From the NCBI GenBank assembly GCA_041483895.1, contig JBGPGO010000007.1, forward strand, positions 131,378-195,377: 64,000 nucleotides of DNA, written 5' to 3'. The notes beneath the pieces are model-generated. The model was not told the origin of the DNA. It ran no database searches and saw nothing but the letters and a program-made list of their open reading frames with translations. The position numbers were made by a program, and so were the translations under genes. This stretch comes from Fimbriimonadia bacterium. GTDB lineage: Bacteria; Armatimonadota; Fimbriimonadia; Fimbriimonadales; JABRVX01. Positions 13,505 to 35,422 of this stretch are shown here, piece after piece. Within the stretch, counting starts at the first letter, position 1, and each line of letters opens with the position of its first letter.

Positions 13505-13628
13505 TCGAGTCTCAATTCTTGGAGGAAGTTGGTCAATTCTACCAGAACTGAAACCTTTCTGCAACCCGCATTTTTCCTTAAGTCATAGAAAATACCTACC
13601 CCGAAAGGTTGCTGTGTGGCACAAGTTG

Positions 13629-17499: not shown

Positions 17500-17700
17500 A
17501 TGAGAAAAGAAATTCCAGCGAAAACGATGGCAGTCATCGGCGTTTTGATCGTCGCCGTCTTGGGAATCCTCGTTTGGCAAGTTTTCTTCAAGTCGGGGCC
17601 TACGAGTCCAGCAGAGATCGGAATCGGCGCGCCTGCGCTTCCGGGTGGCGGCACCGTCTCTCCCGGCAGTGGCAGCAACCCGAACGGGTCTGGAAAGTAA
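17500..17700 (+). CDS. Small single-pass membrane protein (66 aa), Gly/Pro/Ser-rich tail
   Basis: ATG preceded by GGAG. One TM helix (MAVIGVLIVAVLGILVWQVFF). Sits upstream of the MoxR operon. No family recognised. Confidence 0.4.
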   Translation: MRKEIPAKTMAVIGVLIVAVLGILVWQVFFKSGPTSPAEIGIGAPALPGGGTVSPGSGSNPNGSGK

Positions 17701-17854
17701 AGCGAGTCAACCGGCCGTTACTATGGGCTTGGCCCTAGGCTCCTTGGCGGAGAGTCGTTCAATCGAATCTCCCATTCGGTTGGCACGGCACTTAACTTCG
17801 TTCGTCAAAGGTATTGTAGAATGCCGGGTATTGGTTGTAATCAGGGGAGGGGAC

Positions 17855-18868: not shown

Positions 18869-19787
18869 GATCCCCTCGACTTCGCTCGGGGCAGGTGGCA
18901 CTGGGCGGCGCTTCCTCCAACCCGCGGACCTAAAGCGTCTGCAAAATTTGCAGTTCGCCGCGAAATTGATCGTCGAGGGCTATTTCCAGGGCAAGCACCG
19001 CTCGCCCTATTACGACTTCTCTTCAGAATTCGCCGACTATCGCCCCTACACGCCGGGCGACGAAATCCGTGCCATTGATTGGAGGGCCTTCGCGCGCACG
19101 GATCGCTTCTATATCAAGCTGTATCGCAAAGAGACCGACATGAACTGCTGCGTCCTCGTGGACAAGAGCAATTCCATGGCATTTCGCGGCAGCTCGCCCC
19201 TTACGAAGCTCGAATATGCCAATTTCCTCGCGGCCGCCCTGTCCTATTTAATGATAATGCAGGGGGACAAGACCGGCCTGGCGCTCTGCGACGACAAAAT
19301 GTCCGGCTTCGTGCCCGCCGGCGGCACCATGCGAACGCTCCAGCAAATGCTGGTGACATTGGAGCGCGCCACCCCCGGCGGCCCGACGAAGCTCGCGGAA
19401 GGCCTTCGCGTGCTGTTCAGCCTGCTGAAGCGCAAGGGTCTTCTTGTCGTGATCTCCGATTTCCTGGACGACACGAGCGAGGTCTTTTCCGCCCTCAGCA
19501 TGTTCGCGCATAAGGGCTTTGCTATCTTGCTCTTTCACGTCCTGACCGATGACGAAATGAATCTTCCGCTGGTCAGCAACGCGTTGTTTCAAGACATGGA
19601 ATCGCCCGCGTCCGTTTCCGTGGAGCCGGAACCGATCCGTGCGGCCTATCAGGAGGAGATGCGCGGGTTCATTGCGGAGATGGAATCGAACGCGAAGGCA
19701 CGCAGAATGCACTACCAGCTTGCCACGACAGCCGAACCGTATACCAGAGCTCTCGAAGCCTATCTGACGGCAAGGGCCAGGCTATAA
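18852..19787 (+). CDS. DUF58-family protein (vWA-like, MoxR partner)
   Basis: FADYRPYTPGDEIRAIDWRAFARTDRFYIKLYRKE is the DUF58 signature. MIDAS-like VLVDKSNSM. Overlaps the moxR 3' end by 17 nt. Confidence 0.85.
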   Translation: MQPKDEIPSTSLGAGGTGRRFLQPADLKRLQNLQFAAKLIVEGYFQGKHRSPYYDFSSEFADYRPYTPGDEIRAIDWRAFARTDRFYIKLYRKETDMNCCVLVDKSNSMAFRGSSPLTKLEYANFLAAALSYLMIMQGDKTGLALCDDKMSGFVPAGGTMRTLQQMLVTLERATPGGPTKLAEGLRVLFSLLKRKGLLVVISDFLDDTSEVFSALSMFAHKGFAILLFHVLTDDEMNLPLVSNALFQDMESPASVSVEPEPIRAAYQEEMRGFIAEMESNAKARRMHYQLATTAEPYTRALEAYLTARARL

Positions 19788-21917
19788 ATGTTCTCGTTGC
19801 TAAACGCCGGCCTGTGGCCTTGGATTGCGGCAGCGTCCGTGCCGCTGGTGATCCATTTGTTGACCCGCCGTACTCGCAGACGGATGGACCTGCCGACGGT
19901 GAAGTTTCTGCAGCGCACGCTCGCCCATCAGAGCCGCATCTTTCGCTGGCGGCATTGGCTGCTGCTTGCCCTTCGCACGCTGGCGATTGCCGCGCTGGTT
20001 GTGGCCTTCCTGCGCCCAGCCTTGCTGAGTCCGTTGGCGGCGCAGGGTTTCGAGCGATCCGGCGTGGTTATCGTCCTCGATGTGAGCGAGAGCATGGCCT
20101 ACTCGTCCGGTGGTGTGAGCTCGCTGGCGAAAGCGAAAAGCCAGGCGCTCAGCGTTCTGCAAGACTTGCGGGCCGGCGACCATGCGAACATAGTTTTCTG
20201 CGGCGCTCAGCCAACATCCGCCCAGCCGTCGCCAACCACCGACATCGCCGCTCTTCAGACGAGCGTTCGTTCCATGGAAGCGACCGACGAACGGGCAGAC
20301 GCGGCGTCGGCAATCAATGTGGCGGTCGAGCAGTTGGGAAAGACAAATAGTCGGGCCAAGCGGCTCTATATCATCTCCGATTTCCAGCGAACCAACTGGT
20401 CGGATGTCAAGTTTGACGCGGTGCCCGCCGATGCGAGGGTGCTGTTCGTCAGCGTGGATTCGACCGCGCGCCAAAATGCCGGATTGACCGGTCTCAAAAT
20501 CCGCCCCTCAACTCCGTGCGTCGGCGAGCCGCTGACGGTGCAGGCCGAGGTATTCAACTCTTCCTCCTCGCCCCGCACGGTGCCGGTCACATTCACCCTA
20601 TCGGATCCCTCGGCTCCGCTCGGGACAGGCAGCCGCAACTTCTCGGACAGCGTTCAGCTCGCCCCCTATTCCAGCGGGAACGTTAGCCTGCCGCTCACCT
20701 TCGACGCGCCGCAGCGGATGGAGTGCACAGCCACGCTGCCGCAGGACAATCTGGCCGGCGATAACACACGGCGACTCGTCATCGATCTTGGCCGCATGGC
20801 AACCGTTTTGCTGATCACCGACGAGGACACCAACGCCACCACGAGCGCGGCCTACTATCTGGTTCGTGCCCTCCATCCGGACCCCGGTTCGGTCGCCGGC
20901 TTCCGGGTCTTGCCCGTCCATTCGAACGCGGTCAATAACCCGATGCTGAAGGCGGCGGACGCCGTGATGGTTTGCAATGCGCCGAGCATGCCGCCCGTCC
21001 AACTGGAGGTCCTCGCGAAGTATGCGGTCTCCGGCGGCAGCCTGGTCTGGTTTCTGTACGGCGACCGTGTGGCCGAGCAGATCAAGGGGCTGAGCGCCCA
21101 GTTGCCCAAGTCGGAACCCGCGCCGCTACAGGTGGAGGGGATCGCGAACGTCCAAAGCCGGGCCAAGGGATTTGTGACGCTATCCGAGGCGCGATACGAG
21201 AGCAAGCTGCTGAAGGCGTTTCGCGATCTCACTGCGTCAGATCTCGGCCATATCAAGTTCTACAAATTCAGCCTGACGAGCGAGGTGCAGCCGCGCGCTG
21301 AATTGCTGCTGAAATTTGAGGACGGGACGGCGGCGGCGGTCCGGTGCGGGGAGGGCAGCGGCAACCTGTTGCTTCTCAACATGTCCCCCGCGCCGTCCTG
21401 GAGCGACCTTGCAAGGCAACAGATATTTTTGCCGCTCATGCACGAATTTCTTAAAGGAATCCTCGCCAAAGATTCCGGTGCTTTGGAAGCGTTTCCCGGC
21501 GGCACGGCCTCCACCACGATTGAGCCGACATCCGCCACTCTTACGTGCGTCGATCCGCTTGGACAGGTAGTGCCGGTAACCATGGACAAGACGACCGGCT
21601 CCATCGTGATCGATCCGGCGCGTCGGGCGGGTATCTACCACTTGACCGCGGGCGCGCAAGAGGTGGCCGCTCTCGCCGTCAACCCGCACCCGGACGAGTC
21701 CGATCTCCGCTCAATTGATCCGCGCGAACTTGAGTCGCAGCGGGAGAAGTCCCGCTCCTATCTCACCGGCTCGACAGGCAATGACCCGGACGTCAGCGAT
21801 CTCGACAAGGGCACGCCGATCTGGCACTATCTGCTGATATTCGCGATTGCAGCACTGTTCGCGGAGCAGGCCGTTGGCCGCGTGGGCGTGCGATCGCGCA
21901 AGGGGAAGACGGCATGA
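19788..21917 (+). CDS. BatA-N-terminal-domain + vWA membrane protein
   Basis: N-terminus LWPWIAAASVPLVIHLLTRRTRRRMDLPTVKFL resembles the aerotolerance regulator N-terminal domain. MIDAS VIVLDVSESM. C-terminal TM helix. The ATG abuts the previous TAA. Confidence 0.8.
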   Translation: MFSLLNAGLWPWIAAASVPLVIHLLTRRTRRRMDLPTVKFLQRTLAHQSRIFRWRHWLLLALRTLAIAALVVAFLRPALLSPLAAQGFERSGVVIVLDVSESMAYSSGGVSSLAKAKSQALSVLQDLRAGDHANIVFCGAQPTSAQPSPTTDIAALQTSVRSMEATDERADAASAINVAVEQLGKTNSRAKRLYIISDFQRTNWSDVKFDAVPADARVLFVSVDSTARQNAGLTGLKIRPSTPCVGEPLTVQAEVFNSSSSPRTVPVTFTLSDPSAPLGTGSRNFSDSVQLAPYSSGNVSLPLTFDAPQRMECTATLPQDNLAGDNTRRLVIDLGRMATVLLITDEDTNATTSAAYYLVRALHPDPGSVAGFRVLPVHSNAVNNPMLKAADAVMVCNAPSMPPVQLEVLAKYAVSGGSLVWFLYGDRVAEQIKGLSAQLPKSEPAPLQVEGIANVQSRAKGFVTLSEARYESKLLKAFRDLTASDLGHIKFYKFSLTSEVQPRAELLLKFEDGTAAAVRCGEGSGNLLLLNMSPAPSWSDLARQQIFLPLMHEFLKGILAKDSGALEAFPGGTASTTIEPTSATLTCVDPLGQVVPVTMDKTTGSIVIDPARRAGIYHLTAGAQEVAALAVNPHPDESDLRSIDPRELESQREKSRSYLTGSTGNDPDVSDLDKGTPIWHYLLIFAIAALFAEQAVGRVGVRSRKGKTA

Positions 21918-24124
21918 GCTTCTCCCCCATCTTCCCCCTTCTGCAGGTGATCGTATTTGGTTTGATCGCTGTCGGCATTGCGTTTGCGCTGTATCGAAGG
22001 GATGAAAGAGTCGGCCCGCGCTCGCTCGTACTCGCCGTTCTGCGCGCGGTCGCGGTAGCGGGGATCTTCATGCTGCTGCTGAACCCAATTCTCTCGCGCC
22101 CGGAAGACCAGCCGACCGGCAAGCCGCCGCTGATGGTGCTGGTGGATACGTCTCACAGCATGGCGGTCAAGGATGTCGGGACTGGCAGTCGCTTCGATGC
22201 GGCAAAGCGTCAGGTTTTCGACAACCAGCCCCTCCTCCGCGCCCTGTCGCGCAAATACACGCCGATCTTTTTCCGATTGGATTCCGATGCCACGAGACAA
22301 GACCCGACTGCGCTGGATAAGCTGGAGAATCCCGATGGTACGCGGACGTGCATCGGCGAGGGCATCGCGCATGCCCTCAGCGCCGCGGGGGATTCGCGCA
22401 TGGGTGGCATCTTGCTGCTTTCCGACGGGCGCAACAACGGCGACCTCAGCCCCGCCGATATCGCCAAGCAGGCCAAAATGCGAAAGTTTCCGGTCTTCAC
22501 CGTCTGCCTCGGTCAAAAGTCGAACACGAAAGACGTTGGCGTCGCCGTCCGACGATCGCAGGTGTACGCCGCCCCGGATCAGGAGGTGACGATTGACGCG
22601 GACATCACCTGCAGCGGATACGGGTCTGCGCAGGCTCAGGTCCAGCTCCTCCGGGACGGCAAGCTGATGGCAAATCGGACGGTGGGGATCAGCGACAGCG
22701 CCCATTCCAACGTCAGCTTTCCCGTCAAGGAGTCGCAAAAGGGTCTTTATCGGTATTCCATTGTTGTCCAGAAGCTGCCGGGCGAGGTGATTGCCAGCAA
22801 CAACAGGGCCTCCGCCCTTGTCAACGTGCTCAAAGCCAACACCCGAGTCCTGGTCCTCGAAGGCAGGCCGACCTGGGACGCCAAGTTCCTGATCCAGGCG
22901 CTCCACTCCGATCCGAGCGTGCAATTGGATGCGATCTTCAAGCTGACCGACACTCGGTTCTTTGCGGTGCGCGCCGCCGAGACCGGCGAGACTACCTCCG
23001 CAAGCATGAAGATGCCCACCTCCCCCGCCGAGCTTGCGAAATATGACGTGATCATCATCGGCAAGGGGTTTGAGGAGTTCTTTACCGACGCGACCGCCGA
23101 TTCGATCCGCACCTACGTTACGGAAAGCGGCGGCAATCTAATTTTGTTCCGGGGTAAGGCGGAGGATCGTTCGACGACCCTCGCATCGTTGGAGCCCGTG
23201 ACATGGAGCGACGATCAGGTGCGCGATTTCCGCATGAAGCTGACCGCCGACGGACTCACGAATCCGGCCTTCACATTCAATGGCGAGGGCGATTCTGAAA
23301 CCATTGTCCAGGCCCTCCCGACGCTGATCTCCGCGACAAGGGTGGAGAAGGAGAAGGCGCTCTCGGTGGTCCTTGCCCGCGCAAACGGCGTTGCGAACGC
23401 CGGCCAGCCGAACAAAGAGATGGCGGTGCTGGCGTATCAGGACTTCGGCACGGGTCTCGTGGTTTCACTCATCGGCCAGGGGCTCTGGCGATGGGCTCTG
23501 CTACCGCCGGAGCTGGCCAAGTACTCGAAATGTTATAGCGATTTTTGGACCCAGCTCATTCGGTGGCTGGTCAGTCGCTCCGACTTCCTGCCGGGCCAAA
23601 ACGTCTCGCTGAAAACCGACCACCTGAACTATTCCCCCGGCGAGGCCGTCAACCTGATGGCCTTCGTCCGCGGAAAGAAGCCGGACTCGCTGGCGCCTGT
23701 CTCGATCACGGGCCCGGACGGCCAGCCGGTGAAGGTGTCGCTCAGCAAGGCGGGCGGCAAACAGGCGGATTTCCTCGGAGTTTTCCGGCCAAAGGCGCCG
23801 GGCGACTACATCGCGACGCTGGCGACGCAGACCCGGAGCGGGGGCCAGATCACCGTCCCGTTCGCGGTGTTTGAGCGGCGCGAAGAGGACCTGAATACGT
23901 CGGCCGATCCGGGGCTGATGCGACAGATCGCGATGGCCGGCGGCGGCGAAGAGCTGACGCTTGACCAATTGAACGGTCTGCCGGCCAAATTAAAGGAAGC
24001 GCAGGCCCTGCTTGTGACGAAAACGGAGCCGCAAAGCGCCTGGGATCGATGGTGGGTGCTGGCAATCATCCTTGGTATCCTCAGCGCGGAATGGATCCTG
24101 CGGCGAAGAATGGGTATGGTGTAA
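21914..24124 (+). CDS. Membrane vWA-domain protein with GATase1-like C-terminal region (BatB-like)
   Basis: Two N-terminal TM helices, MIDAS LMVLVDTSHSM, a VLVLEGRPTWDAKFL block and a C-terminal TM helix (WWVLAIILGILSAEWIL). ATGA overlap with the upstream gene. Confidence 0.75.
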   Translation: MSFSPIFPLLQVIVFGLIAVGIAFALYRRDERVGPRSLVLAVLRAVAVAGIFMLLLNPILSRPEDQPTGKPPLMVLVDTSHSMAVKDVGTGSRFDAAKRQVFDNQPLLRALSRKYTPIFFRLDSDATRQDPTALDKLENPDGTRTCIGEGIAHALSAAGDSRMGGILLLSDGRNNGDLSPADIAKQAKMRKFPVFTVCLGQKSNTKDVGVAVRRSQVYAAPDQEVTIDADITCSGYGSAQAQVQLLRDGKLMANRTVGISDSAHSNVSFPVKESQKGLYRYSIVVQKLPGEVIASNNRASALVNVLKANTRVLVLEGRPTWDAKFLIQALHSDPSVQLDAIFKLTDTRFFAVRAAETGETTSASMKMPTSPAELAKYDVIIIGKGFEEFFTDATADSIRTYVTESGGNLILFRGKAEDRSTTLASLEPVTWSDDQVRDFRMKLTADGLTNPAFTFNGEGDSETIVQALPTLISATRVEKEKALSVVLARANGVANAGQPNKEMAVLAYQDFGTGLVVSLIGQGLWRWALLPPELAKYSKCYSDFWTQLIRWLVSRSDFLPGQNVSLKTDHLNYSPGEAVNLMAFVRGKKPDSLAPVSITGPDGQPVKVSLSKAGGKQADFLGVFRPKAPGDYIATLATQTRSGGQITVPFAVFERREEDLNTSADPGLMRQIAMAGGGEELTLDQLNGLPAKLKEAQALLVTKTEPQSAWDRWWVLAIILGILSAEWILRRRMGMV

Positions 24125-24128
24125 TGCA

Positions 24129-26969
24129 ATGATCCGATCGCACGTTTTCCCTGTGACCAACCTCAGAGCGGCCCTCCTGAAGACCGCCGGCCGCATCCGC
24201 GAGACCACCGTCCGCGAGGCATCCTACGGACTCGCTTGGCGCTGGCTTGCCATGCTCGGCGGCCTGTTCCTTCTGGACCTGATGTTCGCATTGCCGGTCT
24301 GGCTGCGATGGGCGGGGCTGCTCGGGCAGGGATGGTTCGTGTATCGTGGCGTGCAGGAGATTCGCCGGTCGGGGCATCGTGCGAAATTGGAAGATCAGCG
24401 GGCGGCCCGCGTCGTCGAGGAGAGCCATCCGGAGCTGGATAACGCGCTGATCAATGCGGTGCAATTTGAAGACAAGATCGACGCCGCTCCTGAAGCGCAG
24501 GCCCCGTTGATGCGGCGCGAAATTGAACGGGCGGAGTCGGCGATTGCCGGCGTTTCGCTCGAGGAGACGGTGTCACGGGACGGGGAGCGGCGGTCCTTCC
24601 GAAAGATGGCGGGTTTCGCGGGCGTGTGGCTGCTTGTGGCGGTTCTGTTCCCTGGGGCGTTCTTTGCCGTCATGCCGCGTCTGTTCGCGCCATGGCTGGA
24701 CGATATCACTCCGCCGTTTTCATTGACCAAATTCGACGTGATGCCGCACGGCGCGTCGGTCCGATTCGGCGACCCGCTCACTTTGAACATCTCGGTCTCC
24801 GGCCCCATTCCGGACAACATCGTCTTGATGACCCGGACGAAGGATACCGATTGGCGCAGCGTGGCGCTTGAAAGCACCGAAGCAGGCCATTACGCGGTCA
24901 CGCTCGATTCGCTGCGAGAGGACACATGGTACTGCGCGCAGGGTGGCGGCGCGCGCAGCGCCCGATGGCTGGCGAAAGTGATCCTCCCGCCTACCGCCGA
25001 ATCCATCACGGCCTCCTACGTCTATCCGCGCTACGTCAACCGCCAATCCAACACGGAAACCGTCGGGGATGCGGGAATTCACGCTCTGTTCAACACGGAT
25101 GTTCGGCTGAAGATCAGCGCCAATCGCGACCTCAGCGGCGGCACGCTGACCCTGACCTTTGCGGACGGAGAGACCGAGCGCGTGGACGTGCTGGTCGATC
25201 CGAAAAGTCATCGCCAGGCGATCACAACGTTCCGCCTCACCCGCTCCGGCAAATTCACGTTGATGCTGGCCGGCGACGACAACCAGGTCAATCCGGAGGC
25301 GGCGAAGGGCAAGCTGACGGTCGAGCACGATCAGCATCCGACGGTTTGGATCGACGCGCCCGGCCAAGAGCTTCTCGTCACGCCGGAAATGAAACTCGCC
25401 ATCGGCGTGGAGGCCGAGGACGATGTCGGGGTTCAGACGCTGGAAATCCATCGCACGATCAACGACCTTGCGGACACGCAGGACATCCTCCACAATGGCC
25501 CGCCGCTCAAGAAGGTCGGCAGCCGGCTGGTGATGGACCTGGCCGATCTCGGCGTTCGGCCCGGAGACCAGATCACCTACTATGCCGCCGCCTACGACAA
25601 CGATCCGGGGCGGCCGAACTACGCCGAAACCGATCCGTACAAGCTGAAGGTGGTATCGAAAGAGGAGTATATCAAGGCGCTCAAGGATCAGCAGGACGCG
25701 GAGCGACTGAGCAAAGACATGCAGGACATTGTCGAAGCGACCCAGGAACTGGCCAAGCAGCAGCGCGAGCTCGCGGAAAAGATGCAGAAAATCAAGAACG
25801 AATTGGCCAAGAAGCCCGGCGATGCAGCCTTGCAAAAGCAGCTTCAGCAGGCACAGGCGGAACAGAAGGAATTGCAACAGGCCGCGCAAGAATTCGCCGA
25901 CCAGCTCAGCGCCTACGCCAAGTCGCCGAGCAACTCCGATTTGGAGGCCGCGTTGAAAAAGAAGATCGGCGAGATGTCTCAGAAGATCGGGCAGGCGGCG
26001 CAAGGGCCGATGCAGCAGGCACAGAGCGGGACCCCGGGCGAGGCCGCGGATGCCGCCAAGAAGGCCGCCGAAATGCTGAGCCAGGTGAACGGCCAGATGC
26101 AGCAGCAGGTGGCCAAGAGCATCCAGAATTTGGAAAAGGTCGCGCCGCTCTTTAATGACGTCGAGCGATTCAAAGAGCTTTTGACTCGCCAAGGACAACT
26201 CGTTCTGCAGGCGCGCCAATTCCAGGATCGCGCCGCCACCGATGCGACGGCCAAGGCGCGCATGGATCATATCGCCACGGAGCAGGAGCAGATTCGACAA
26301 GAGCTTCAACAGCTCCAACAGGATTTCCGCGCCCATGCCACCGCCGCGCAGAAAGATTTCCCCAAAGCCGCCGCGTCCGCGCGAAAGATCGCCGATGAGA
26401 TCGGCCGCCGGCAGATCGCCAATCTGATGCAGGCAGGGACAGACAAGTTCCACGAATACCAAGGACCGGAAGGATTCCAAAACGCCCAGCGCGCCCTCCA
26501 GGAGATGGAGGCGATGATGAGCAATTGCCAAGCATGTCAGAGCAATTGTGAAGGGGAGCTCGACATCGCGCTGGGCCGGAGCCTCGGCCAATCCGGCCTC
26601 GGCGACAGCCTCTCGCAGTGCATGGGAAACAGTCCCGGCACGGGGCAAGGGGGTGGCAACGCATCCGGCCGCGGCGGGATGGGTGGCGGGTCGGTGGGGC
26701 AGACCGGTGGCGGCTATACGATGCGCGGTCCGATGGCATATGTTCCGTCCGTTCGCAGCTTAGGCGGCGCGGCGGGCGTCAAGCGCGCAAAGAATCCAAA
26801 CGGGATGGCGCGAACGCCGGCGGAGCTTGCCCCCGACCATGTCGAGACCATGGGCTCCAATGTCAAGACGCCGCCAAAGGCATCCGACGCCGCGAATCGC
26901 GCATACCCGCCGGAATACCGCAAGATGATCAACGACTACTTCATCTCGGTCTCAAAGGAAAAGCGATGA
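24129..26969 (+). CDS. Large membrane-anchored protein, DUF4175-like, with long Q/A/K/E-rich coiled coil and Gly-rich tail
   Basis: The ATG at 24129 lies 4 nt after the previous stop. N-terminal TM pair (LAWRWLAMLGGLFLLDLMFALPVWL). The central beta-rich region is followed by ~250 aa of heptad-like Q/A/E/K sequence, then a GGGNASGRGGMGGGSVGQTGGG tail. Confidence 0.7.
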   Translation: MIRSHVFPVTNLRAALLKTAGRIRETTVREASYGLAWRWLAMLGGLFLLDLMFALPVWLRWAGLLGQGWFVYRGVQEIRRSGHRAKLEDQRAARVVEESHPELDNALINAVQFEDKIDAAPEAQAPLMRREIERAESAIAGVSLEETVSRDGERRSFRKMAGFAGVWLLVAVLFPGAFFAVMPRLFAPWLDDITPPFSLTKFDVMPHGASVRFGDPLTLNISVSGPIPDNIVLMTRTKDTDWRSVALESTEAGHYAVTLDSLREDTWYCAQGGGARSARWLAKVILPPTAESITASYVYPRYVNRQSNTETVGDAGIHALFNTDVRLKISANRDLSGGTLTLTFADGETERVDVLVDPKSHRQAITTFRLTRSGKFTLMLAGDDNQVNPEAAKGKLTVEHDQHPTVWIDAPGQELLVTPEMKLAIGVEAEDDVGVQTLEIHRTINDLADTQDILHNGPPLKKVGSRLVMDLADLGVRPGDQITYYAAAYDNDPGRPNYAETDPYKLKVVSKEEYIKALKDQQDAERLSKDMQDIVEATQELAKQQRELAEKMQKIKNELAKKPGDAALQKQLQQAQAEQKELQQAAQEFADQLSAYAKSPSNSDLEAALKKKIGEMSQKIGQAAQGPMQQAQSGTPGEAADAAKKAAEMLSQVNGQMQQQVAKSIQNLEKVAPLFNDVERFKELLTRQGQLVLQARQFQDRAATDATAKARMDHIATEQEQIRQELQQLQQDFRAHATAAQKDFPKAAASARKIADEIGRRQIANLMQAGTDKFHEYQGPEGFQNAQRALQEMEAMMSNCQACQSNCEGELDIALGRSLGQSGLGDSLSQCMGNSPGTGQGGGNASGRGGMGGGSVGQTGGGYTMRGPMAYVPSVRSLGGAAGVKRAKNPNGMARTPAELAPDHVETMGSNVKTPPKASDAANRAYPPEYRKMINDYFISVSKEKR

Positions 26970-27637
26970 AAAAGACTCAGCGACTTCTCGCCCTTGCCGT
27001 GTTCCTTCCCCTCCTCGTGATGGGGCATCCGGGACCGGGCGCCGTTCAGGAGGGCGACAAAGTTAAATGCGCCAACCTGACCTACGCGATGAACAAGACA
27101 TCGGTCTGCTTCAGCGATCGCTTCCTGCGCCGCCTGCAGCTTGAGACCAACATCCTGACGGAGCCGCGATTTATGAAGGCCCGCCTCGGAACCAATGAGG
27201 TGTTCGATTATCCGTTTTGCATCATGACGGGCGAGGGGGGCTTTTCGCTAACGCCGAAGGAGAGGATCAACCTCAAGTATTACGTCACGCATGGCGGATT
27301 CTTGCTGGCATCCGCGGGATGCTCCGATCCCGAATGGACCAAGTCGTTTCGCGGCGAGATGGCCCGGATCTTCCCGGATCTCAAACTTAAATCGATTCCG
27401 CTCACTCACCCGATCTATCACACCGTCTACGATATCAAATCCACCCAAACGATCCATGACCACCGCGGCGCGGTCTTGGAAGGCCTGTTTTACAACAACA
27501 AGATCGTCGTGCTCTTTTCCCAGGACGGCCTGAACGACACTTCCCATGCGGAGAACTGCTGCTGCTGTGGCGGTGATGAGCTGGATCAGGCGGAGTATTT
27601 CAACGTCAACATTCTCGGCTATGCGCTTCTCCACTAA
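26966..27637 (+). CDS. Secreted DUF4159-like protein
   Basis: ATGA overlap with the upstream stop. Signal peptide MKKTQRLLALAVFLPLLVMG. YPFCIMTGEGGFSLTPKERINLKYYVTHGGFLLASAGC and ...NILGYALL resemble DUF4159. The longer ORF from 26618 overlaps the previous gene out of frame. Confidence 0.7.
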   Translation: MKKTQRLLALAVFLPLLVMGHPGPGAVQEGDKVKCANLTYAMNKTSVCFSDRFLRRLQLETNILTEPRFMKARLGTNEVFDYPFCIMTGEGGFSLTPKERINLKYYVTHGGFLLASAGCSDPEWTKSFRGEMARIFPDLKLKSIPLTHPIYHTVYDIKSTQTIHDHRGAVLEGLFYNNKIVVLFSQDGLNDTSHAENCCCCGGDELDQAEYFNVNILGYALLH

Positions 27638-28958
27638 GCTCGGAATCGCTTTGTGCTTTCCGCTATCGGCCCTTGTCACTGGTATGGTATTGGAGGGCTG
27701 CGGATCCGGGATGCCGGAGCGGTTGACTCTGTTCGTGTCGGGAGATAGCAGAGGGTATTTAGAGCCGTGCGGCTGCCGGATCGATCAGGCCGGTGGACTG
27801 CCCGGCCGAGCAGTCGCGATCGAGAAGGCAGGGGTGGGGGAGAAGCTGGTGGTGGACGTTGGAAACCTGACATCTGGCAGCCGATCCTACGAGCTGCTCA
27901 AGATGCGCTACCTCTTGGAAGGAATGAAGGCGATCGGATACGACGCGGTCAACCTCGGCAAGAATGAGGCGCAACTCGATCGGGTGACGCTGAGCGACAT
28001 GATGTCCCATTCTGGGCTGCCGTTTTTGTCGGCGAATGTATTGGATAAGAAGGATAAGACCCCGATTGCCGACCGCTATCGGATCATCCGCCGCGGTGCG
28101 CTGCGGGTCGGCGTCACTGGAGTCACGGAATGTGAGGCGCGCGACGCCGGGCCGGGCATCGAGGTCCGGCCGCCGATTGAAGCGCTGGCCGATGTCATCC
28201 CCGACCTGAAGGGCAAGTGCGACTTCGTCGTCGTTCTTGCATTCGTTGACGAAGAAACCATCAAACAGATCGCGGAAAAGTTTCATGAAGTGGACTGCAT
28301 TCTCGGCGGCGACGTCCCGCAATCTTCGGGAACGGCCCAAACGATCAACCGCGCGATCGCGTTCAACGTCGTCGATCGCGGAAAGGTTTTGGGGCAGATC
28401 GATCTGGTGCGCAAGGGGGCCGGCTACTCGGTCGCATCATCCAAGGGGATAAGGATCGCGGCGGACAAAGTGAAGGGACCGCCCGCGATCGCCGACCTTC
28501 TCGCGCGATATAAAAATGAATTGCGCGAGCGAAGATTTGAATTGGCAAGCGCCGAAGGCATGGAGCGGATCGCCGGGCAAGAGACCACATCGGACGAGTT
28601 CGTCGGAGCGCAGGCCTGCCAGAGCTGCCACGCTTCATCTCTGCACGTCCTGCTTGCCTCCGCCCATAGTCACGCGCTCCAAACCCTGAAAGAGAAAAAG
28701 AGCGAATTCGATCCGGAATGCCTTCGCTGCCACACCGTCGGTTACGGTCTTTCCAGCGGCTACATAGACGAAAAGACGACGCCGCAACTGGCCGGAGTGC
28801 AATGCGAGAACTGCCACGGAAGAGCGAAAGAGCATATCGCAAAAGGGGTGAAAACGACGCTGAAGCCGGTGACCCCCGCAACCTGTGTAAACTGCCATGA
28901 TGAGGAGAACAGCGCGAACTTCCGCTTTGCCACCTTCTGGCCGAAGATCGCGCACTGA
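27621..28958 (+). CDS. Lipoprotein: degenerate calcineurin-like/5'-nucleotidase-like domain + C-terminal tetrahaem cytochrome c
   Basis: Lipobox VLEGC. N-terminal LTLFVSGDSRGYLEPCGC, VVDVGNLTSG and AVNLGKNEAQL occupy the positions of the metallophosphatase motifs. The C-terminus has four CxxCH motifs (CQSCH, CLRCH, CENCH, CVNCH). Confidence 0.75.
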   Translation: MRFSTKLGIALCFPLSALVTGMVLEGCGSGMPERLTLFVSGDSRGYLEPCGCRIDQAGGLPGRAVAIEKAGVGEKLVVDVGNLTSGSRSYELLKMRYLLEGMKAIGYDAVNLGKNEAQLDRVTLSDMMSHSGLPFLSANVLDKKDKTPIADRYRIIRRGALRVGVTGVTECEARDAGPGIEVRPPIEALADVIPDLKGKCDFVVVLAFVDEETIKQIAEKFHEVDCILGGDVPQSSGTAQTINRAIAFNVVDRGKVLGQIDLVRKGAGYSVASSKGIRIAADKVKGPPAIADLLARYKNELRERRFELASAEGMERIAGQETTSDEFVGAQACQSCHASSLHVLLASAHSHALQTLKEKKSEFDPECLRCHTVGYGLSSGYIDEKTTPQLAGVQCENCHGRAKEHIAKGVKTTLKPVTPATCVNCHDEENSANFRFATFWPKIAH

Positions 28959-28963
28959 TAGCC

Positions 28964-29740
28964 ATGAAAATGATACCGATTCTGTGCCTGTTCCTTGCTG
29001 CCGCCGCTACAGCCCAAGTTCACTGGGAGACTAGCTACGACCACGCCAAGCAGGTCGCCGATAAAGCCGGAAAGCCGCTCCTTGTTGACTTCGCGGCGTC
29101 CTGGTGCGGGCCATGCCGGATGATGGACGAGCAGACCTTTAGCAACGCGAGCGTGAAATCTCTTCTCGCACGAACCATCTGCCTTCGGCTCGATGTGGAT
29201 CAGCGCCCGCCGCTTGCCGCAAAGTTTGGCGTCAACTCCATCCCGCGCGTGGTCTTGCTGTCCACAACAGGCGTAACGATCATGGATATTCAGGGTTTTC
29301 ATGACGCACAGTCGTTTTCGCAGGAGCTCAGTCGTGCGCTGGGAGTGAAAGCCGATGCCGCCGCACCGACTGAATCCCCCGAGGCAGTTAAGGTGCGTGA
29401 GGCGCTGCGAAATGGCACGTTCAGGCGACTGAAAGCCAGCGATCCGAAAACCGCCGCGCGCGGATTGGATCTGCTCGTGGCACAGCTTGGGGTCTTTGAG
29501 GAAGCGCAATATCGTCCGATCGCGTCGCTGATCAAGAACGCGGGCAGGGATGCCATCCCCGCGCTCATCGCCGGGATGGGGCATAAGCATCTGGCGGTCC
29601 GCGTCGGCGCTTATCGGACGCTGCAGTCAATCCTTGGCGCCAAACGTGGCCTGCCGGTTTACAACCCGTGGGCGTCTGCCAAAGTTCGGCAGCAGCAGCT
29701 CGCCGCGTGGCAAAAATGGTGGCAGAATCAGAGCGGCTAA
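28964..29740 (+). CDS. Secreted thioredoxin-fold protein (WCGPC) with HEAT-like C-terminal repeats
   Basis: Signal peptide MKMIPILCLFLAAAATAQ. Canonical thioredoxin active site (LVDFAASWCGPCRMMD). C-terminus includes AIPALIAGMGHKHLAVRVGAYRTL. Confidence 0.8.
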   Translation: MKMIPILCLFLAAAATAQVHWETSYDHAKQVADKAGKPLLVDFAASWCGPCRMMDEQTFSNASVKSLLARTICLRLDVDQRPPLAAKFGVNSIPRVVLLSTTGVTIMDIQGFHDAQSFSQELSRALGVKADAAAPTESPEAVKVREALRNGTFRRLKASDPKTAARGLDLLVAQLGVFEEAQYRPIASLIKNAGRDAIPALIAGMGHKHLAVRVGAYRTLQSILGAKRGLPVYNPWASAKVRQQQLAAWQKWWQNQSG

Positions 29741-32193
29741 TCCGCATAGCCGCCATATCGTTGACCCTGCCGCATCATGATCTTTGCGATTGCCATATCC
29801 GCCGTGCCGAACTTGGACGGCTTTGACGATTCCAGTTTCCATCCACCCGACTGCCGGAACTTCGCGAGGTACTCCTTGGGCATCTGGCCGCGCATATCGT
29901 ATGGTGAGTAGTATGTTTGACTCCCCGCCATGGGCCGCCAGGACCAGTAATGCACCTCCGCCAAAGAGCGCGAATCGTTGAACAGGACAGGTCCGTCCTT
30001 TGTGAGTATCGTCATGCTGTCGTTCGCGGGGCCGCCGAACTGCAAAACGCGCATCCCGCCCAGATCGTCGACCCGCTTCATGTAGTCCTCTTCCGTTACG
30101 CAGATGACGCGCGCCGCCGCTCCGTGAAACTCCTGCCAAGACGGCTTGTCCAGCACGACGATGATCGGATCGCGGGCTTTGTCACCACCGAAGCAGGCGG
30201 TGAACACGGTTTGGAGAATCTCGCGTCGGTCGGCGTTCCCAGCGAGCGGTTTCCCCTCCGTCCCGTTCGGGGCAGGCGCCAGCGGGTTGGCGTCCTTTCC
30301 GTCCGGCGCTCCGTCTCCATCCGTGTCTTTCTTGCTTGGGTCCGAACCGAGGCGCTTCTCGATCCGGTCCGGCAGCCCGTCGCCGTCCGTATCTTGCCGC
30401 ATCTCTTTCAGCGATAGTGTGATTGGGGTCCGCAGTCCTTTGCTGACCGACTGCTGCAGCTTGCTGGACTTGCGGTACAGTTCCGACCGCCGTTCCGCCA
30501 CTAGGCCGGAATCCCGCAGCGCCGCCTGCACACGCTGCAATTCTAGCGCGTCGGTCTTGTTGGGCGGCGATAGGACTACGCTGTCTCCGTCCACCGAAAT
30601 CGTGCAGCTGCCCGCCTTGGGTCCACCGCCGTAGCTTGAATAGTTGGATCCCGCGACGTACTGTTTGCCGGAGAACAGAAACTCTTGCCATTTGCCTTCC
30701 CGTTCCCGCGCGAGCCAGAGGTCCATCGCGTTCCCCAATCTGGGACAGACGACAACCACCCATCGGTTGCCGTCGGGCGAGAGATTGGAAGCGACGGGTG
30801 ATAGCGTGCCGGTTGGAGCGTCTTTTTCGCCATGAAAAACCGGTAGTTCGAATTCGCCGAGCGCGATCGTGCCGTTGGAGTCTGATTTGAAGGCGGTCAG
30901 ATTCCCGGTGGCAACGAGACCTTGCCGGGCGGTGGCGCGGGCCTCATCCGACGCGTCCGGGCTGGTGGCGATCTCTCCCAGCGCTTCCATTCCGGCTTTC
31001 GTGCCCTTCCTCGCGATCGCGGCGGCGCATTTGGAAAGGAGAAGCGCGGCCATGCCCTTTTGCTTGGGATTCGTTGTGTGCATTGCGCGTTTGGCGAAGT
31101 TCGCGATGGCTGCGTCCGCCGTGGGAAGGTCCATGATTTCCAGTACCCGCAAGGCAGCGTCGGCAGCCGGCGGCTTCGCAACGTCGAGAAATCCGGCAAG
31201 TGTGGGAACGGCGGCGTCTCCGAAAAGGCCGAGCGTCGAGAAGGCGTCGTTCGTCTCTTCTCGCAACGGCGGAATCTCGGTGGGAGATTCTACTTCCGCA
31301 CCGGGTGATGCGCCGGAGCGGCCCGCGTAGGACGAAAACCCTTCCGCAGAAATCTCCGGGCTCCCATCGATCTTCGCCTTTAGGGCGGCGATCTTGTCGG
31401 ATATCTTCTTCGGATCGGTCAGCCGCGATAGCTTCCAGGTCCCACTCTTGTAGGCCGCCTCCCCGCCGAAATAGTCCGCGAGCCGCACCATCAGCTCCTC
31501 CAGCCCAATGCGGTCCACCACTTTGAACTGCAGCATCGCGCGGTGGGTCTGCTGGCTATAGGCGCCGGAATAGGACCGACGGGAGGCTTCTCCATACATC
31601 AATGAAAGCACGCCGCCGCCTTCCTCCTCCGGCTTGGTTTCGCGGCCAAGGAGGTTTTGGCGAAGGGTCAGCAACTGTGGATCGGCATCAATTTTGATCT
31701 GCCAGGTTGAGCTCATGGCCGTCACCATCTGGCCGGCCGTCTCCGCGAAGATTCCAAATCCGGTGATCCCGTCCGGCGGCGACTTCTCTATCGCATGCAG
31801 CTCTTTTTCCGGGCCGAAGTACAGGAGAACATATTCCTTCCCCTGTTTCCAGGCAATCGGGGATTTCTTTGCGCACGTCTCTAGAACCTGCTGGACGGAC
31901 TGCGCTTGGGGCGTGTAGGCCGGCGTCCATTTAACTTCGTCGAGCGGCTTGGGCGCGAACACGACCCAGCAGCCGCCGGCCGATTGGGCCATCGCAGCCG
32001 CCAGAGACAGCGGCTCGCCCGTCCGGCCCGTGCCGACCCAGGACGAAATGTCGAACGGCCGGGACAGATCGGCGTCGTGCGAAACATTCTCTGCTGATGC
32101 ATTTGTGCCCGGCTTTGCCGCATGGCGGCAGGACGGCAACGCTAGCAGCAATACTATGATCGCAACCCAAAACTGGAATCGACTTCGCGACAT
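29737..32193 (-). CDS. Large secreted/lipoprotein with HEAT-like repeats and thrombospondin type-3-like Ca-binding repeats; function unknown
   Basis: Signal/lipobox-like MSRSRFQFWVAIIVLLLALPSC. DTDGDGLPDRIEKRLGSDPSKKDTDGDGAPDGKDANP is TSP3-like. Helical repeat region. RBS GAAGGAG upstream. 4-nt tail-to-tail overlap with the thioredoxin gene. Confidence 0.65.
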   Translation of the reverse strand: MSRSRFQFWVAIIVLLLALPSCRHAAKPGTNASAENVSHDADLSRPFDISSWVGTGRTGEPLSLAAAMAQSAGGCWVVFAPKPLDEVKWTPAYTPQAQSVQQVLETCAKKSPIAWKQGKEYVLLYFGPEKELHAIEKSPPDGITGFGIFAETAGQMVTAMSSTWQIKIDADPQLLTLRQNLLGRETKPEEEGGGVLSLMYGEASRRSYSGAYSQQTHRAMLQFKVVDRIGLEELMVRLADYFGGEAAYKSGTWKLSRLTDPKKISDKIAALKAKIDGSPEISAEGFSSYAGRSGASPGAEVESPTEIPPLREETNDAFSTLGLFGDAAVPTLAGFLDVAKPPAADAALRVLEIMDLPTADAAIANFAKRAMHTTNPKQKGMAALLLSKCAAAIARKGTKAGMEALGEIATSPDASDEARATARQGLVATGNLTAFKSDSNGTIALGEFELPVFHGEKDAPTGTLSPVASNLSPDGNRWVVVVCPRLGNAMDLWLAREREGKWQEFLFSGKQYVAGSNYSSYGGGPKAGSCTISVDGDSVVLSPPNKTDALELQRVQAALRDSGLVAERRSELYRKSSKLQQSVSKGLRTPITLSLKEMRQDTDGDGLPDRIEKRLGSDPSKKDTDGDGAPDGKDANPLAPAPNGTEGKPLAGNADRREILQTVFTACFGGDKARDPIIVVLDKPSWQEFHGAAARVICVTEEDYMKRVDDLGGMRVLQFGGPANDSMTILTKDGPVLFNDSRSLAEVHYWSWRPMAGSQTYYSPYDMRGQMPKEYLAKFRQSGGWKLESSKPSKFGTADMAIAKIMMRQGQRYGGYAD

Positions 32194-32325: not shown

Positions 32326-32354
32326 TTGACACGCCGGATTCTTGATGCTATAAT
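32326..32354 (+). promoter_or_regulatory. Consensus sigma70-type promoter (TTGACA-17 nt-TATAAT)
   Basis: TTGACA at 32326-32331, an exact 17-nt spacer, and TATAAT at 32349-32354, seen directly in the sequence. It drives the leu leader. Confidence 0.7.
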
Positions 32355-32519: not shown

Positions 32520-32555
32520 AGGCCTCCCGGAAAACCGGGGGGCCTTTCCGATTTT
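32520..32555 (+). terminator. Rho-independent terminator/attenuator upstream of leuB
   Basis: GGCCTCCCGG-aaaa-CCGGGGGGCC forms a 10-bp stem with one G-U pair, followed by TTTCCGATTTT. It lies 33 nt after the leader stop and 205 nt before the leuB ATG. Confidence 0.7.
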
Positions 32556-32760
32556 GAGCGGCAAACGCGCCGACAGTGTCGTCGGCCTGACATCCCGCCT
32601 GCCCCGCCCGTCCCGAGCGAAGCCGAGGGAAGCGGAGCCGAGGGGATACCGGGAAACGAAAGGACGCGACATGGATAGGACTGGCGCAAGAGTGGTGATG
32701 GAGGCGACGCAATGGGCCGGCGAGCGCTGGGGCGGTCACCCATTCCGGGAGGCGCGGCGC

Positions 32761-33882
32761 ATGACCCACACGATAGCGGTTCTGCCCGGCGACGGTATCG
32801 GCCCGGAGGTGGTCGCCCAGGCCGTCTTGGCGCTCAAGGCGGTGGGCGTCCGATTTGGATTGGAGCTGCGATTTGACGAAGGGCTCGTCGGCGGGGCAGC
32901 CTTCGATGCGACGGGCCATCCTCTGCCGGACGCAACGTTGGAGCTTTGCCGCCGATCGGACGCTGTCATTCTTGGGGCGGTGGGCGGCACGAAATGGGAT
33001 GGACTCGATATGGAGCTGCGACCGGAAACTGGGGCGCTGCTACCCTTGCGCAAACAACTTGGGCTGTTCGCCAACCTGCGGCCCGCGCGGCTGTACGAAC
33101 CGTTGGCATCGGCTTCGCCGCTCAAGGCGGGCCATCGGTTCGATATCCTGATCGTTCGGGAGTTGACCGGCGGAATCTATTTTGGGAAAAAGGAACGGAC
33201 GGCCGGCGGCGCGATCGACGTCTGTTCCTATTCGGTGGAAGAGATCGAGCGAATCGTCCACGTTGGTTTTCGGGCGGCCCGAACGCGCGGACGAAAACTG
33301 TGTTCTGTGGACAAGGCCAACGTTTTGGAAACGTCGCGTCTCTGGCGAGAGGTCGTCGTTCGCATTTCGGCCGAGTATCCGGATGTCTCGGTGACCCACA
33401 TGCTGGTCGATAACTGCGCTATGCAACTGGTGCGCGATCCGAGCCAGTTCGATGTGATCGTCACGGACAATCTTTTTGGCGACATTTTGAGCGATGAGGC
33501 GGCAGCGATGACCGGCAGCTTAGGGATGCTTCCATCGGCCTCTCTCGGCGATGGAAGATTCGGCTTGTACGAACCGGTGCATGGATCGGCACCTGATATC
33601 GCCGGGAAGGACGTCGCCAATCCTATGGCCGCAATCCTTTGCACGGGGATGCTGCTGCGTCATTCTCTCGAATCTCCCGAAGCGGCGGATGCTGTCGATA
33701 AGGCTGTGATCGCGGCGTTGCATGACGGTTGGCGAACGGCAGACATTGCCGGCGACGGTAAGTTCATCGGTACAAAGGAGATGGGTGCAAGGGTCTTGGA
33801 AAAACTGGAATCGCGCTTCCCAATCCCTTCACAGTCGGACTGCGAAGGGATTGGGAAGTCGCACTGTAAAAGCGAGGACTGA
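32761..33882 (+). CDS. leuB: 3-isopropylmalate dehydrogenase, with ~20-aa C-terminal extension encoded by a palindromic element
   Basis: ATG 32761 follows [24 protein letters not shown]...[11 protein letters not shown]...GSAPDIAGK are IPMDH signatures. The 69 upstream codons of ORF 32554 cover the leader/terminator region. Confidence 0.9.
33826..33868. repeat. REP-like palindromic element, family A (21-bp arms, 1 mismatch)
   Basis: CTTCCCAATCCCTTCACAGTC-g-GACTGCGAAGGGATTGGGAAG lies within the last codons of leuB. Related copies are at 47828-47854 and 47946-47996. Confidence 0.85.
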
Positions 33883-33883
33883 T

Positions 33884-35422
33884 ATGGCAACACGCATTAC
33901 TATTTTTGATACCACACTGCGGGACGGGGAGCAGTCCCCTGGCGCCTCGCTCAACGTCGAGGAGAAGATCGAGATCGCGCGGCAACTCGAGCGGCTTGGC
34001 GTGGATGTCATCGAGGCCGGATTCCCGATCTCTTCGCCGGGAGATTTTCGCGCGGTGCAAGAGGTGTGCGCGGTGGTGAAAGAGGCGACGGTCTGCGGTC
34101 TGACTCGCGCCGTCGAAAAGGATATCGACGTCGCGGCGGAGGCTCTAAAAGGGGCGGTCCGTCCGCGAATCCATACGGGTCTCGGCGTTTCCGACAACCA
34201 CCTCCGCTACAAACTGCGAATGACCCGCGACGAGGCATTGGAGCACGGGATAAACGCGGTCCGCCATGCGCGGCGATACGTGGACGATGTGGAGTATTTC
34301 CTGGAAGATTCCGGCCGTGCGGATACGGACTATCTGTGCCGAGTCATCGAGGCCGTCATCGATGCCGGTGCGACCGTGATTAACATTCCTGACACCACCG
34401 GATTTACGACTCCCGACGAGTTCGGCGCGCGGATCCGGACGGTGCTGGAGCGCGTCCCAAACGTGGACAAGGCCGTCATCTCCGTGCACTGTCACAACGA
34501 TCTTGGCATGGCGGTGGCCAACTCGCTGGCCGGCGTCATGAACGGGGCCCGGCAGGTCGAATGCACGGTCAACGGCATCGGAGAACGCGCGGGAAACACG
34601 AGCCTGGAAGAGGTCGTGATGGCGATGAAGGTCCGGAGCGATCTGTTTGCGATGGAGACCGGCATCGTGACGCAAGAGATCTATAAGACGAGTCGCCTGG
34701 TCTCGAATCTCACGGGCATTCTGGTCCAGCCGAACAAGGCAATTGTTGGTTCGAACGCATTTGCCCATTCTTCCGGGATTCATCAGGACGGAGTCTTGAA
34801 AGAGCGCACGACGTATGAGATCATCGACCCGCGGGATGTGGGCATTCCTGAGAGCAAGATTCTCTTGACAGCGAGATCGGGACGGCATGCATTGCGCAGC
34901 CGCCTTGCCGACCTGGGCCACCAACTGGGCGAAGCGGAGGTGGACAAAGTTTATCAGCGCTTCCTCGAAGTTGCCGACAAAAAGAAGATGATTTTCGACG
35001 AGGACTTGGAAGCGATCGTCGCGGATGAGACTTCCAGTGTGCGAGTCACGTACGAGTTGGCTCATGTACAGGTCTCATGCGGCAGCGACAGCATTCCGAC
35101 GGCAACCGTCGAGCTTCTCGGGCCCGATGGCGATCGATTCGTCGATTCCGATCATGGCGCCGGACCGGTTGACGCCATCTACCGATCGATCAACCGGATC
35201 ATCGGCGTGGAGAATGAACTGATCGAGTTCTCCATCCAAGCCGTAACCGAAGGAATTGATGCCTTGGCCGAGGTCACGATTCGGATACGCCGCGGCAACG
35301 ACATATACACCGGCCGCGCCTCTCATTCTGACATCTGCGTCGCGAGCGCGAGGGCGTATATGCAGGCCCTCAATAAGCTGCTTGATCGCGTGGGCGCACC
35401 GGCTTTGGAGCCCGCCGTATGA
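33884..35422 (+). CDS. leuA: 2-isopropylmalate synthase
   Basis: The ATG at 33884 lies 1 nt after the leuB stop. [19 protein letters not shown]...[16 protein letters not shown]... are LeuA signatures, and a C-terminal regulatory domain is present. Confidence 0.92.

Follow-up and report, generated by a model that had tools for sequence, protein, structure and literature searches.

A degenerate 5'-nucleotidase-fold protein with a Cys pair and a tetrahaem domain in a conserved MoxR/Bat-like operon

In a stretch of 64,000 nucleotides from a Fimbriimonadia bacterium (contig JBGPGO010000007.1; the whole stretch is called the window in the following) we analysed a gene on the + strand at 27621..28958, whose product of 445 amino acids (aa) joins a 5'-nucleotidase-type domain without its metal site to a tetrahaem domain resembling cytochrome c554. 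The former nucleotidase domain carries a strictly conserved Cys pair, and in-frame TGA codons in relatives mark the second Cys, C52, as a selenocysteine (Sec) position. In one subfamily, to which the window protein belongs, the gene is a fixed part of a MoxR/Bat-like operon that also encodes a secreted thioredoxin-fold protein and a secreted Cys-rich protein. We think there is about an even chance that the product is an exported, probably lipid-anchored redox protein of two domains, in which the Cys pair is wired through the haems and serves these thiol-rich neighbours. The gene and the parts of its product, with positions counted in the window, are:

27621..28958, + strand: gene of the UshA-like Cys-pair/tetrahaem protein, 445 aa, stop codon 28956-28958 (from the list of open reading frames (ORFs), the identical NCBI protein and the NF041198 match)
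27621..27701, + strand: signal peptide ending in L-E-G-C27, with a probable but atypical lipobox (from the sequence)
27711..28535, + strand: metal-free domain with the 5'-nucleotidase-type metallophosphatase fold, residues ~31-305 (from the profile, Foldseek and AlphaFold2)
27765..27776, + strand: P49-C50-G51-C52 motif; the codon of C52, 27774-27776, is the Sec position in relatives
28536..28595, + strand: flexible interdomain linker, residues ~306-325 (predicted local distance difference test score (pLDDT) of the AlphaFold2 model <50 at residues 315-324)
28596..28955, + strand: cytochrome c554-like tetrahaem domain, residues ~326-445, distal His H349, H405 and H445
28617..28631, + strand: haem motif 1, CQSCH, residues 333-337, invariant
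28719..28733, + strand: haem motif 2, CLRCH, residues 367-371
28803..28817, + strand: haem motif 3, CENCH, residues 395-399
28884..28898, + strand: haem motif 4, CVNCH, residues 422-426

A 5'-nucleotidase fold without its metal site

The homology of the N-terminal domain to 5'-nucleotidases is solid in both profile and model comparisons, despite the silence of Pfam. A profile built from 42 sequences (A1) and aligned to solved 5'-nucleotidases matched the N-terminal domains of these enzymes in the PDB with E~1e-23 (best 7e-24), including UshA with 8e-19 and SoxB with 4e-18. The AlphaFold2 model computed from the A1 alignment reached a mean pLDDT of 89 and a predicted template modelling score (pTM) of 0.86, with the N-terminal domain mostly above 90, and its top match in Foldseek was 3ivd (E 4e-20, 310 columns, root-mean-square deviation (rmsd) 3.4 Å, 19% identity), followed by UshA, the T. 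thermophilus 5'-nucleotidase, SoxB and CD73. The calcineurin-like fold that had been recognised by eye in the first-pass annotation, which was made from the letters of the window alone, is thus borne out over ~310 columns. That annotation had also suggested a comparison with the Pfam models Metallophos (PF00149) and 5_nucleotid_C (PF02872) and with the structures of UshA and SoxB; the two models gave no match to the window protein at E<=0.1, whereas the alignment to the structures was positive.

The profile alignment shows what has happened to the metal site. The motif D-x-H is D42-S-R44 in the window protein, G-D is G81-N82, G-N-H-E is G113-K-N-E116, and the two later His motifs read L206-A-F and G-G-D. 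The altered motifs seen by eye therefore stand up against the solved enzymes; in the first motif the His is lost and the Asp, D42, is still present. Across 281 four-haem relatives, in which residue conservation was measured, the former ligand positions change freely from one sequence to another: R, A, L, D and Q occur at 44, N, G and D at 82, and a wide variety of residues at both 114 and 115. GGxxR, D79, G81, G113 and S-x-N139 are conserved; they align with positions that the solved 5'-nucleotidases keep and are probably inherited fold positions. Because the metal-holding residues and the catalytic His are lost, the protein is not expected to be a phosphatase.

The comparison with the individual enzymes gives the same picture. 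E. coli UshA (1USH) and c4898 (3IVD) and human CD73 share the fold with the window protein (Foldseek 4e-20 to 1e-18, ~310 columns, rmsd 3.2-3.8 Å) and also GGxxR, D-x-G, S-x-N and the E-P after motif I, but the window protein is without the dimetal ligands, the catalytic His and 5_nucleotid_C and has gained the Cys pair and four haems. SoxB (2WDC, 4UWQ) has a homologous fold and is likewise periplasmic; its substrate is a sulfur adduct held on a cysteine of a carrier protein, and in its pathway it cooperates with the c-type cytochromes SoxAX. In contrast to the window protein, it needs a dimanganese site. The SoxB model TIGR04486 scores only 43.1 bits against a cutoff of 550, the dimanganese ligands are absent, and no sox genes are found nearby. 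The substrate-binding C-terminal domain of the 5'-nucleotidases is missing and residues 326-445 form the cytochrome domain in its place; in the AlphaFold2 model a long helix (residues 288-304) is followed by the disordered linker and then by this domain, and the confident two-domain model suggests a defined domain interface.

The reading frame itself, as called in the first-pass annotation, is real, and its product is identical over the full length to protein P0001, which is already predicted in an NCBI assembly. A longer alternative ORF begins at 27546; the start at 27621 is favoured because the homologues begin at this Met. The nearest named homologues belong to Fimbriimonas, Fimbriimonadales, Chthonomonadales and other Armatimonadota and share up to 65% identity with the window protein. 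The product had also been called a lipoprotein. It has a signal peptide and Cys27, but compared with the lipobox [LVI][ASTVI][GAS]C it reads L-E-G-C27 and is not canonical, the Glu at -2 being atypical. Since about 40 of the 120 homologues listed show the canonical L-[AS]-G-C in their N-terminal signal region, lipidation of the window protein appears likely, though not certain.

Cys pair, selenocysteine and haems

The new element of the N-terminal domain is the Cys pair, which lies in YLEPCGC (residues 46-52) right after motif I, as noticed before. The 281 relatives keep P49, C50, G51 and C52 without exception or almost so, with C50 and C52 at 100%, and these four are the only family-specific invariants of the domain. 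PCGC sits on the loop that follows strand beta-1; in genuine nucleotidases this loop bears the first metal ligands.

In relatives the codon of C52 is often TGA. A scan of metagenomes with the pattern Y-x-E-P-C-G-TGA-x5-G-G found at least 119 contigs with an in-frame TGA at this codon; chance alone, roughly estimated, should give no more than a few matches. The frame is open in 119 of the 120 matches listed; among these it stays open for 240-490 codons downstream of the TGA where the contig is long enough, and it reads ...EPCGU.....GGLARRA. About 45 of the complete ORFs among the matches listed end in four CXXCH motifs, and about 20 stop after ~250-295 residues with no haem motif. EPCG-TGA at the same site was also found in nine species-representative genomes, belonging to Krumholzibacteriota and Fibrobacteraceae. 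The Sec homologues (L011-L130, for example L021:1400-1447:-) can form a hairpin of 7 bp with a GGN triloop 24 nt past the TGA (columns 25-41 of alignment A2), overlapping the codons for L-A-R-R-A. Its columns pair in 82% of cases, a value that drops to 47% or less once the partner columns are shifted, double changes occupy 46 cells against 12.8 in shuffles, and one pair takes G-C, C-G, U-A and A-U. This covarying hairpin is probably a bacterial selenocysteine insertion sequence (SECIS) element. As TGA stands at its codon in relatives and is followed by the covarying hairpin, C52 is to be read as the Sec position of the family. A subgroup with GGLPRRA appears to rely on another hairpin, located more upstream. 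The N-terminally short homologues P0050 and P0065 were considered as further Sec forms and rejected; their upstream frame reads EPCGC and their starts are miscalled. The window gene has TGC at codon 52, without the combination of in-frame UGA and SECIS that defines a selenoprotein, and all members examined from the operon type described below are Cys forms.

The C-terminal domain contains the four haem motifs CQSCH, CLRCH, CENCH and CVNCH, all reported earlier, and matches the Pfam model Cytochrome_C554 (PF13435) with 51.2 bits against a cutoff of 20.8 (E 2.6e-13). It also matches the structure of c554, 1bvb, with E 2e-18 for the profile and 7e-10 for the single sequence, in an alignment that runs through the first three haem motifs and includes the His after motif 1. 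The 281 sequences have four proximal His but exactly three conserved distal His (H349, H405, H445), and no Met, Lys or Tyr is conserved in them as a candidate for a sixth ligand. In c554 three distal His likewise serve four haems, and its haem 2 is five-coordinate. With three conserved distal His for four haems, as in c554, the domain probably holds three bis-His haems and one five-coordinate haem, the latter presumably at C367-x-x-C370-H371. The c554 of Nitrosomonas europaea (1BVB/1FT5) thus resembles the window domain in its four CXXCH motifs, in spacing and sequence around haems 1-3 and in the three distal His; the window domain differs in having ~120 residues instead of 211, in being fused to an enzyme-like domain and in lacking any context of hydroxylamine oxidation.

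As a whole, this architecture was already a curated family, which the first-pass annotation had missed. The window protein matches NCBIfam NF041198 ('UshA_like_PCGU', UshA-like (seleno)protein) over both domains with E 4.3e-77 and 259.8 bits, falling marginally short of the curated cutoff of 275 bits; its close homologue P0002 scores 265.4, while the more distant P0110 and P0111 pass with 296 and 314. Since the C-terminal 135 aa alone match positions 398-518 (E 5.4e-33), NF041198 includes the tetrahaem domain. The P-C-G-[U/C] signature of the family is present as YLEPCGC, at the same place where the Sec forms read EPCGU. NF041198 shows the same layout of a degenerate UshA-like domain with P-C-G-[C/U] and a C-terminal tetrahaem domain, whereas the window protein is shorter (445 aa against a model of 519 positions), Cys-only, below the cutoff and part of the MoxR/Bat-operon clade; P0110 and P0111, which pass the cutoff, and their clade adjoin DUF1573 genes. 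Judged from these scores and residues, the window protein would be a Cys-form member or a close sister of the catalogued family, in a Cys-only sister subfamily. Zhang & Gladyshev 2008 (PMC2398784) listed the family as 'COG0737, UshA-like' with the motif CxU and 76 Sec and 92 Cys forms in the Global Ocean Sampling (GOS) data, and it appears again in the later reviews PMC9312934 and PMC13188914; none of the three papers assigns it a function. Our literature searches for DUF4159, the family of the Cys-rich neighbour, and for COG0737 returned no functional study.

Relatives are encoded in at least 577 stretches of species-representative genomes, mostly from Planctomycetota and also from Armatimonadota, Hydrogenedentes, Poribacteria, Krumholzibacteriota and Fibrobacteraceae. 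A phmmer search with the N-terminal domain against 1.84 billion representatives gave 5461 matches at E<=1e-3 and 1278 at E<=1e-10, and the best 150 of them keep C-x-C (as PCGC, PCEC, PCDC, PCAC or ACGC) and the following GG. Three architectures were found, of ~450 aa with four haems, ~330 aa with no haem and ~1200 aa with four haems. The haem-free stand-alone proteins of ~330 aa (P0128-P0150) carry PCEC, PCDC or PCAC, and the proteins of ~1200 aa (P0133, P0147, P0173) have two stretches matching the N-terminal domain in phmmer besides four C-terminal haems. Because stand-alone forms exist, and no cytochrome gene lies beside the stand-alone Sec forms, the Cys/Sec domain is an autonomous module to which the haem domain would have been added as an electron conduit.

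A conserved MoxR/Bat-like operon

The gene is the seventh of eight tightly packed genes on the + strand, a context that had not been recognised before. Its seven neighbours are:

17645-18868, + strand: MoxR, AAA_3 (Pfam)
18687-19787, + strand: DUF58 (Pfam)
19788-21917, + strand: BatA and VWA (Pfam)
21914-24124, + strand: VWA protein (Pfam), conserved upstream in 34 loci
24072-26969, + strand: DUF4175-like protein of 965 aa (Pfam), corresponding to a ~960-aa gene conserved upstream in 41 loci
26960..27637, + strand: secreted DUF4159 protein (Pfam PF13709, 4e-26), overlapping the start of the target gene by 17 nt
28964..29740, + strand: secreted thioredoxin-fold protein (Thioredoxin_7, 5e-17; weak HEAT_2, 0.011), with W-C-G-P-C at 29102-29116

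Only 5 nt separate the stop codon of the target gene from the thioredoxin gene, and promoter- and terminator-like sites between 16000 and 33000 occur at chance level, so that no internal promoter or terminator is supported. Like the Bat operons, this one starts with MoxR (AAA_3), DUF58 and BatA/VWA. Classical bat operons contain, to our knowledge, no DUF4159, cytochrome or thioredoxin genes; the variant in the window adds three secreted Cys-dependent proteins. A defence-system reading of the MoxR/VWA operon was rejected: PADLOC gave nothing but a weak match of MoxR to DolB (E 2e-4), and none for the target gene or its other neighbours. The 965-aa protein has membrane segments at its N-terminus and a long stretch rich in Q, A, E and K that probably forms a coiled coil, and its matches to DUF4175 and TgpA_N are weak.

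In order to survey the context we clustered the ORFs around 91 loci, made up of the window, 10 contigs from exact look-up and 80 genome loci, and two contexts emerged. In the first (type 1) the order is VWA, the ~960-aa protein, DUF4159, the target, thioredoxin(CxxC)-HEAT and often then SIMPL/DUF541, with DUF4159 present in 44 loci, the ~960-aa protein in 41, the thioredoxin in 39 and VWA in 34; DUF4159 lies directly upstream of the target in all 44 and the thioredoxin directly downstream in all 39. Type 1 includes the window, L001, L002, L007, L131-L143 and others, and its taxa are Armatimonadota, many Planctomycetota (including Blastopirellula marina DSM 3645), Hydrogenedentes, Sedimentisphaerales and Kuenenia. 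In the second context (type 2, 27 loci) longer forms of the target are paired with a DUF1573/HYDIN-Ig protein. The basal split of a neighbour-joining tree of the proteins separates the Bat-context members, among them the window protein, from all DUF1573-context members. The clade of NF041198 proper (L004 7331-13356; L006 7635-13587; L005, L009, L010, L144-L146, L160, L167, L174-L207) is the one adjoining DUF1573/HYDIN-Ig, and in L004 and L006 there follow a DUF2092-like protein, a Peptidase_C39+DUF1573 protein and an STT3-type oligosaccharyltransferase. Around the Sec homologues we detected neither Bat-operon genes nor adjacent cytochrome genes as conserved partners, just the local synteny of related contigs.

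The two direct neighbours are themselves rich in conserved Cys. The thioredoxin-fold protein keeps a single CxxC in ~85% of the loci, as WCGPC in Armatimonadota and mostly as WCxWC in Planctomycetes. In the latter it is often a protein of 1100-1300 aa that joins a thioredoxin fold (WCxWC) at its N-terminus to many HEAT repeats, usually followed by SIMPL/DUF541 (L137, L138, L143, L147, L155, L163, L182 at 7332-10754, and others), compared with ~260-290 aa in Armatimonadota. Six Cys of the DUF4159 neighbours are the same in all 44 sequences, arranged as SxC, A-G-C-S and the run C-C-C-C-G-G (27557-27574 in the window). The solved DUF4159 structure 4i66 (Hoch_4089; E 9e-16) reads E-G-A-L and A-C-V-P-D-G at these places, and because it lacks those Cys the set appears peculiar to the operon-linked subfamily. 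The CCCC run might bind a metal or form a redox site of an unusual kind; together with the A-G-C-S-D motif it stands on a GATase1/ThuA-like fold. No strongly conserved Cys occurs in the VWA and ~960-aa proteins. DUF4159, the target and the thioredoxin all have signal peptides, and genes of sulfur or selenium metabolism were not found in the conserved operon.

Beyond the operon, a secreted protein of 818 aa with bacterial TSP3 repeats (29737-32193, - strand) converges on its end, and in L001 a gene of similar size (824 aa, no Pfam match) takes the same position. A second ORF of 818 aa at 11108-13564 was considered as a paralogue of it and rejected, the two being unrelated. At 32326-32354 the window contains a perfect 12/12 match to a sigma-70-type promoter (TTGACA, 17-nt spacer, TATAAT, extended TG), which precedes the ORFs 32554-33882 and 33722-35422, by eye leuB- and leuA-like.

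Proposed function and alternatives

The first-pass annotation had taken the protein for a repurposed redox or ligand-binding module rather than a phosphatase, and the fold, the loss of ligands and the tetrahaem domain support this interpretation. From these features, together with the haem motifs, the Sec substitution and the conservation of the operon, we infer a function as redox protein, and this reading is strengthened because the second Cys of CGC is Sec in many relatives. Most likely C50 and C52 would be the reactive centre and cycle between dithiol and disulfide, or selenenylsulfide in relatives. The c554-like domain, sitting on the same hinge as the lost nucleotide-binding domain, would carry electrons, so that the two electrons of the Cys couple might be exchanged singly with periplasmic or respiratory carriers. 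The job of the protein might then be to supply or drain electrons for periplasmic thiol-disulfide chemistry on DUF4159 and thioredoxin-HEAT. Protein partners are favoured because the operon-linked thioredoxin fold and the Cys-rich protein are so tightly conserved beside the target. By analogy of function only, DsbD/CcdA acting on TlpA/CcmG-type thioredoxins and DsbB acting on DsbA would be comparable, each a membrane-associated recycler of a periplasmic CxxC thioredoxin-fold protein; there is no homology to these routes, and c-type haems would carry the electrons instead of a transmembrane Cys cascade or a quinone. The proposal echoes the original hypothesis for the Bat proteins, in which they would reduce oxidatively damaged periplasmic proteins or export reducing power to the periplasm (quoted in PMC3557215).

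Several points weigh against this proposal. The N-terminal domain also exists alone, in Cys or Sec form, and the stand-alone Sec forms checked have no neighbouring cytochrome gene. Since the domain occurs without a fused cytochrome, the haems cannot be essential to its core chemistry. The Sec forms do not lie within the Bat-type operon, and the Sec argument is carried to the Cys-only subfamily by homology alone. Gene adjacency is association and not proof of a redox relay. Literature searches found no experimental work on any member of NF041198, and bat mutants of Leptospira were without a phenotype under oxidative stress (PMC3557215).

An alternative that we consider unlikely is that the Cys pair binds a thiophilic metal or metalloid such as Cu(I), the protein being a redox-assisted metallochaperone in which the haems set the oxidation state of the metal and MoxR/VWA loads the CCCC run of DUF4159. 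C-x-C is a known metal-binding motif, MoxR/VWA pairs are linked to the insertion of metal centres elsewhere (CoxD, NorQ/D, chelatases), and both precedents speak for this idea, as do the resemblance of the invariant CCCCGG of DUF4159 to a metal site and the fact that some listed selenoproteins handle metals, such as the Cu/Zn efflux transporter SO_0444 with the motif UxC. On the other hand the pair offers two ligands alone, with no third or fourth Cys, His or Met conserved in the N-terminal domain, Sec mostly serves as redox nucleophile, and a classical WCGPC thioredoxin as neighbour fits thiol-disulfide exchange better.

The same Cys/Sec and haem chemistry might also act on a small molecule, either a peroxide, the protein then being a thiol/selenol peroxidase with re-reduction via the haems, or an inorganic sulfur or selenium species (such as polysulfide, thiosulfate or selenite), which we likewise judge improbable. 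Selenoprotein family tables show reactive Sec as a typical trait of peroxidase-like enzymes and of redox enzymes acting on small molecules, and such a role would agree with stand-alone Sec forms that have no conserved partner gene, with SoxB, an enzyme of the sulfur cycle, as structural relative, with an operon type named for aerotolerance and with a haem that may be five-coordinate. Against it, the conserved operon is free of sulfur- or selenium-metabolism genes, the conservation together with thioredoxin-fold and Cys-rich proteins points to protein partners, and no residues of a substrate pocket are conserved besides the Cys pair.

Considerably less probable is that the N-terminal domain is an inactive scaffold that does no more than bind or anchor, which would leave the protein a plain electron carrier with four haems. 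All ancestral catalytic residues are indeed lost and the NCBI name of close homologues is merely 'multiheme c-type cytochrome', but C50 and C52 do not vary in the 281 sequences from distant phyla, the repeated use of costly Sec at C52 with a SECIS-like hairpin implies a reactive role, and the domain exists without haems. That the protein has kept a metal-dependent 5'-nucleotidase or phosphodiesterase activity by means of unusual ligands, for which the fold and the retained D42 and E116 could be cited, is effectively excluded by the Arg, Asn, Lys, Phe and Asp now found, and freely varying in the family, at the His/Asn/Asp ligand positions, by the missing Metallophos and 5_nucleotid_C matches and by the absence of the nucleotide-binding domain.

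Returning to the redox protein wired to its thiol-rich neighbours, a more far-reaching version can be formulated, which is speculative and in our view rather doubtful: the lipoprotein and thioredoxin-HEAT would form the missing redox arm of the Bat/MoxR-VWA operons, a haem-based route linked to the respiratory chain that brings reducing equivalents to periplasmic thiols or takes them away, independent of DsbD/CcdA and DsbB, with DUF4159 and its run of four Cys as dedicated client, and the Cys/Sec pair may work directly against the five-coordinate haem.

In summary, a family that has been catalogued since 2008 with its function unassigned is extended here by direct evidence that C52 is the Sec position, by a ligand pattern like that of c554 and by a conserved operon that names candidate partners. 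The operon of this subfamily, found in ~44 genomes of several phyla, had no mention in the literature that we searched. The protein also illustrates cleanly how an enzyme fold can lose a metal site and gain a thiol/selenol site. Furthermore, one subfamily has a settled place in a MoxR/Bat-like operon; the biochemistry of this operon type has stayed open since 1999, and with this the periplasmic role of the Bat type becomes a question about three defined soluble proteins.

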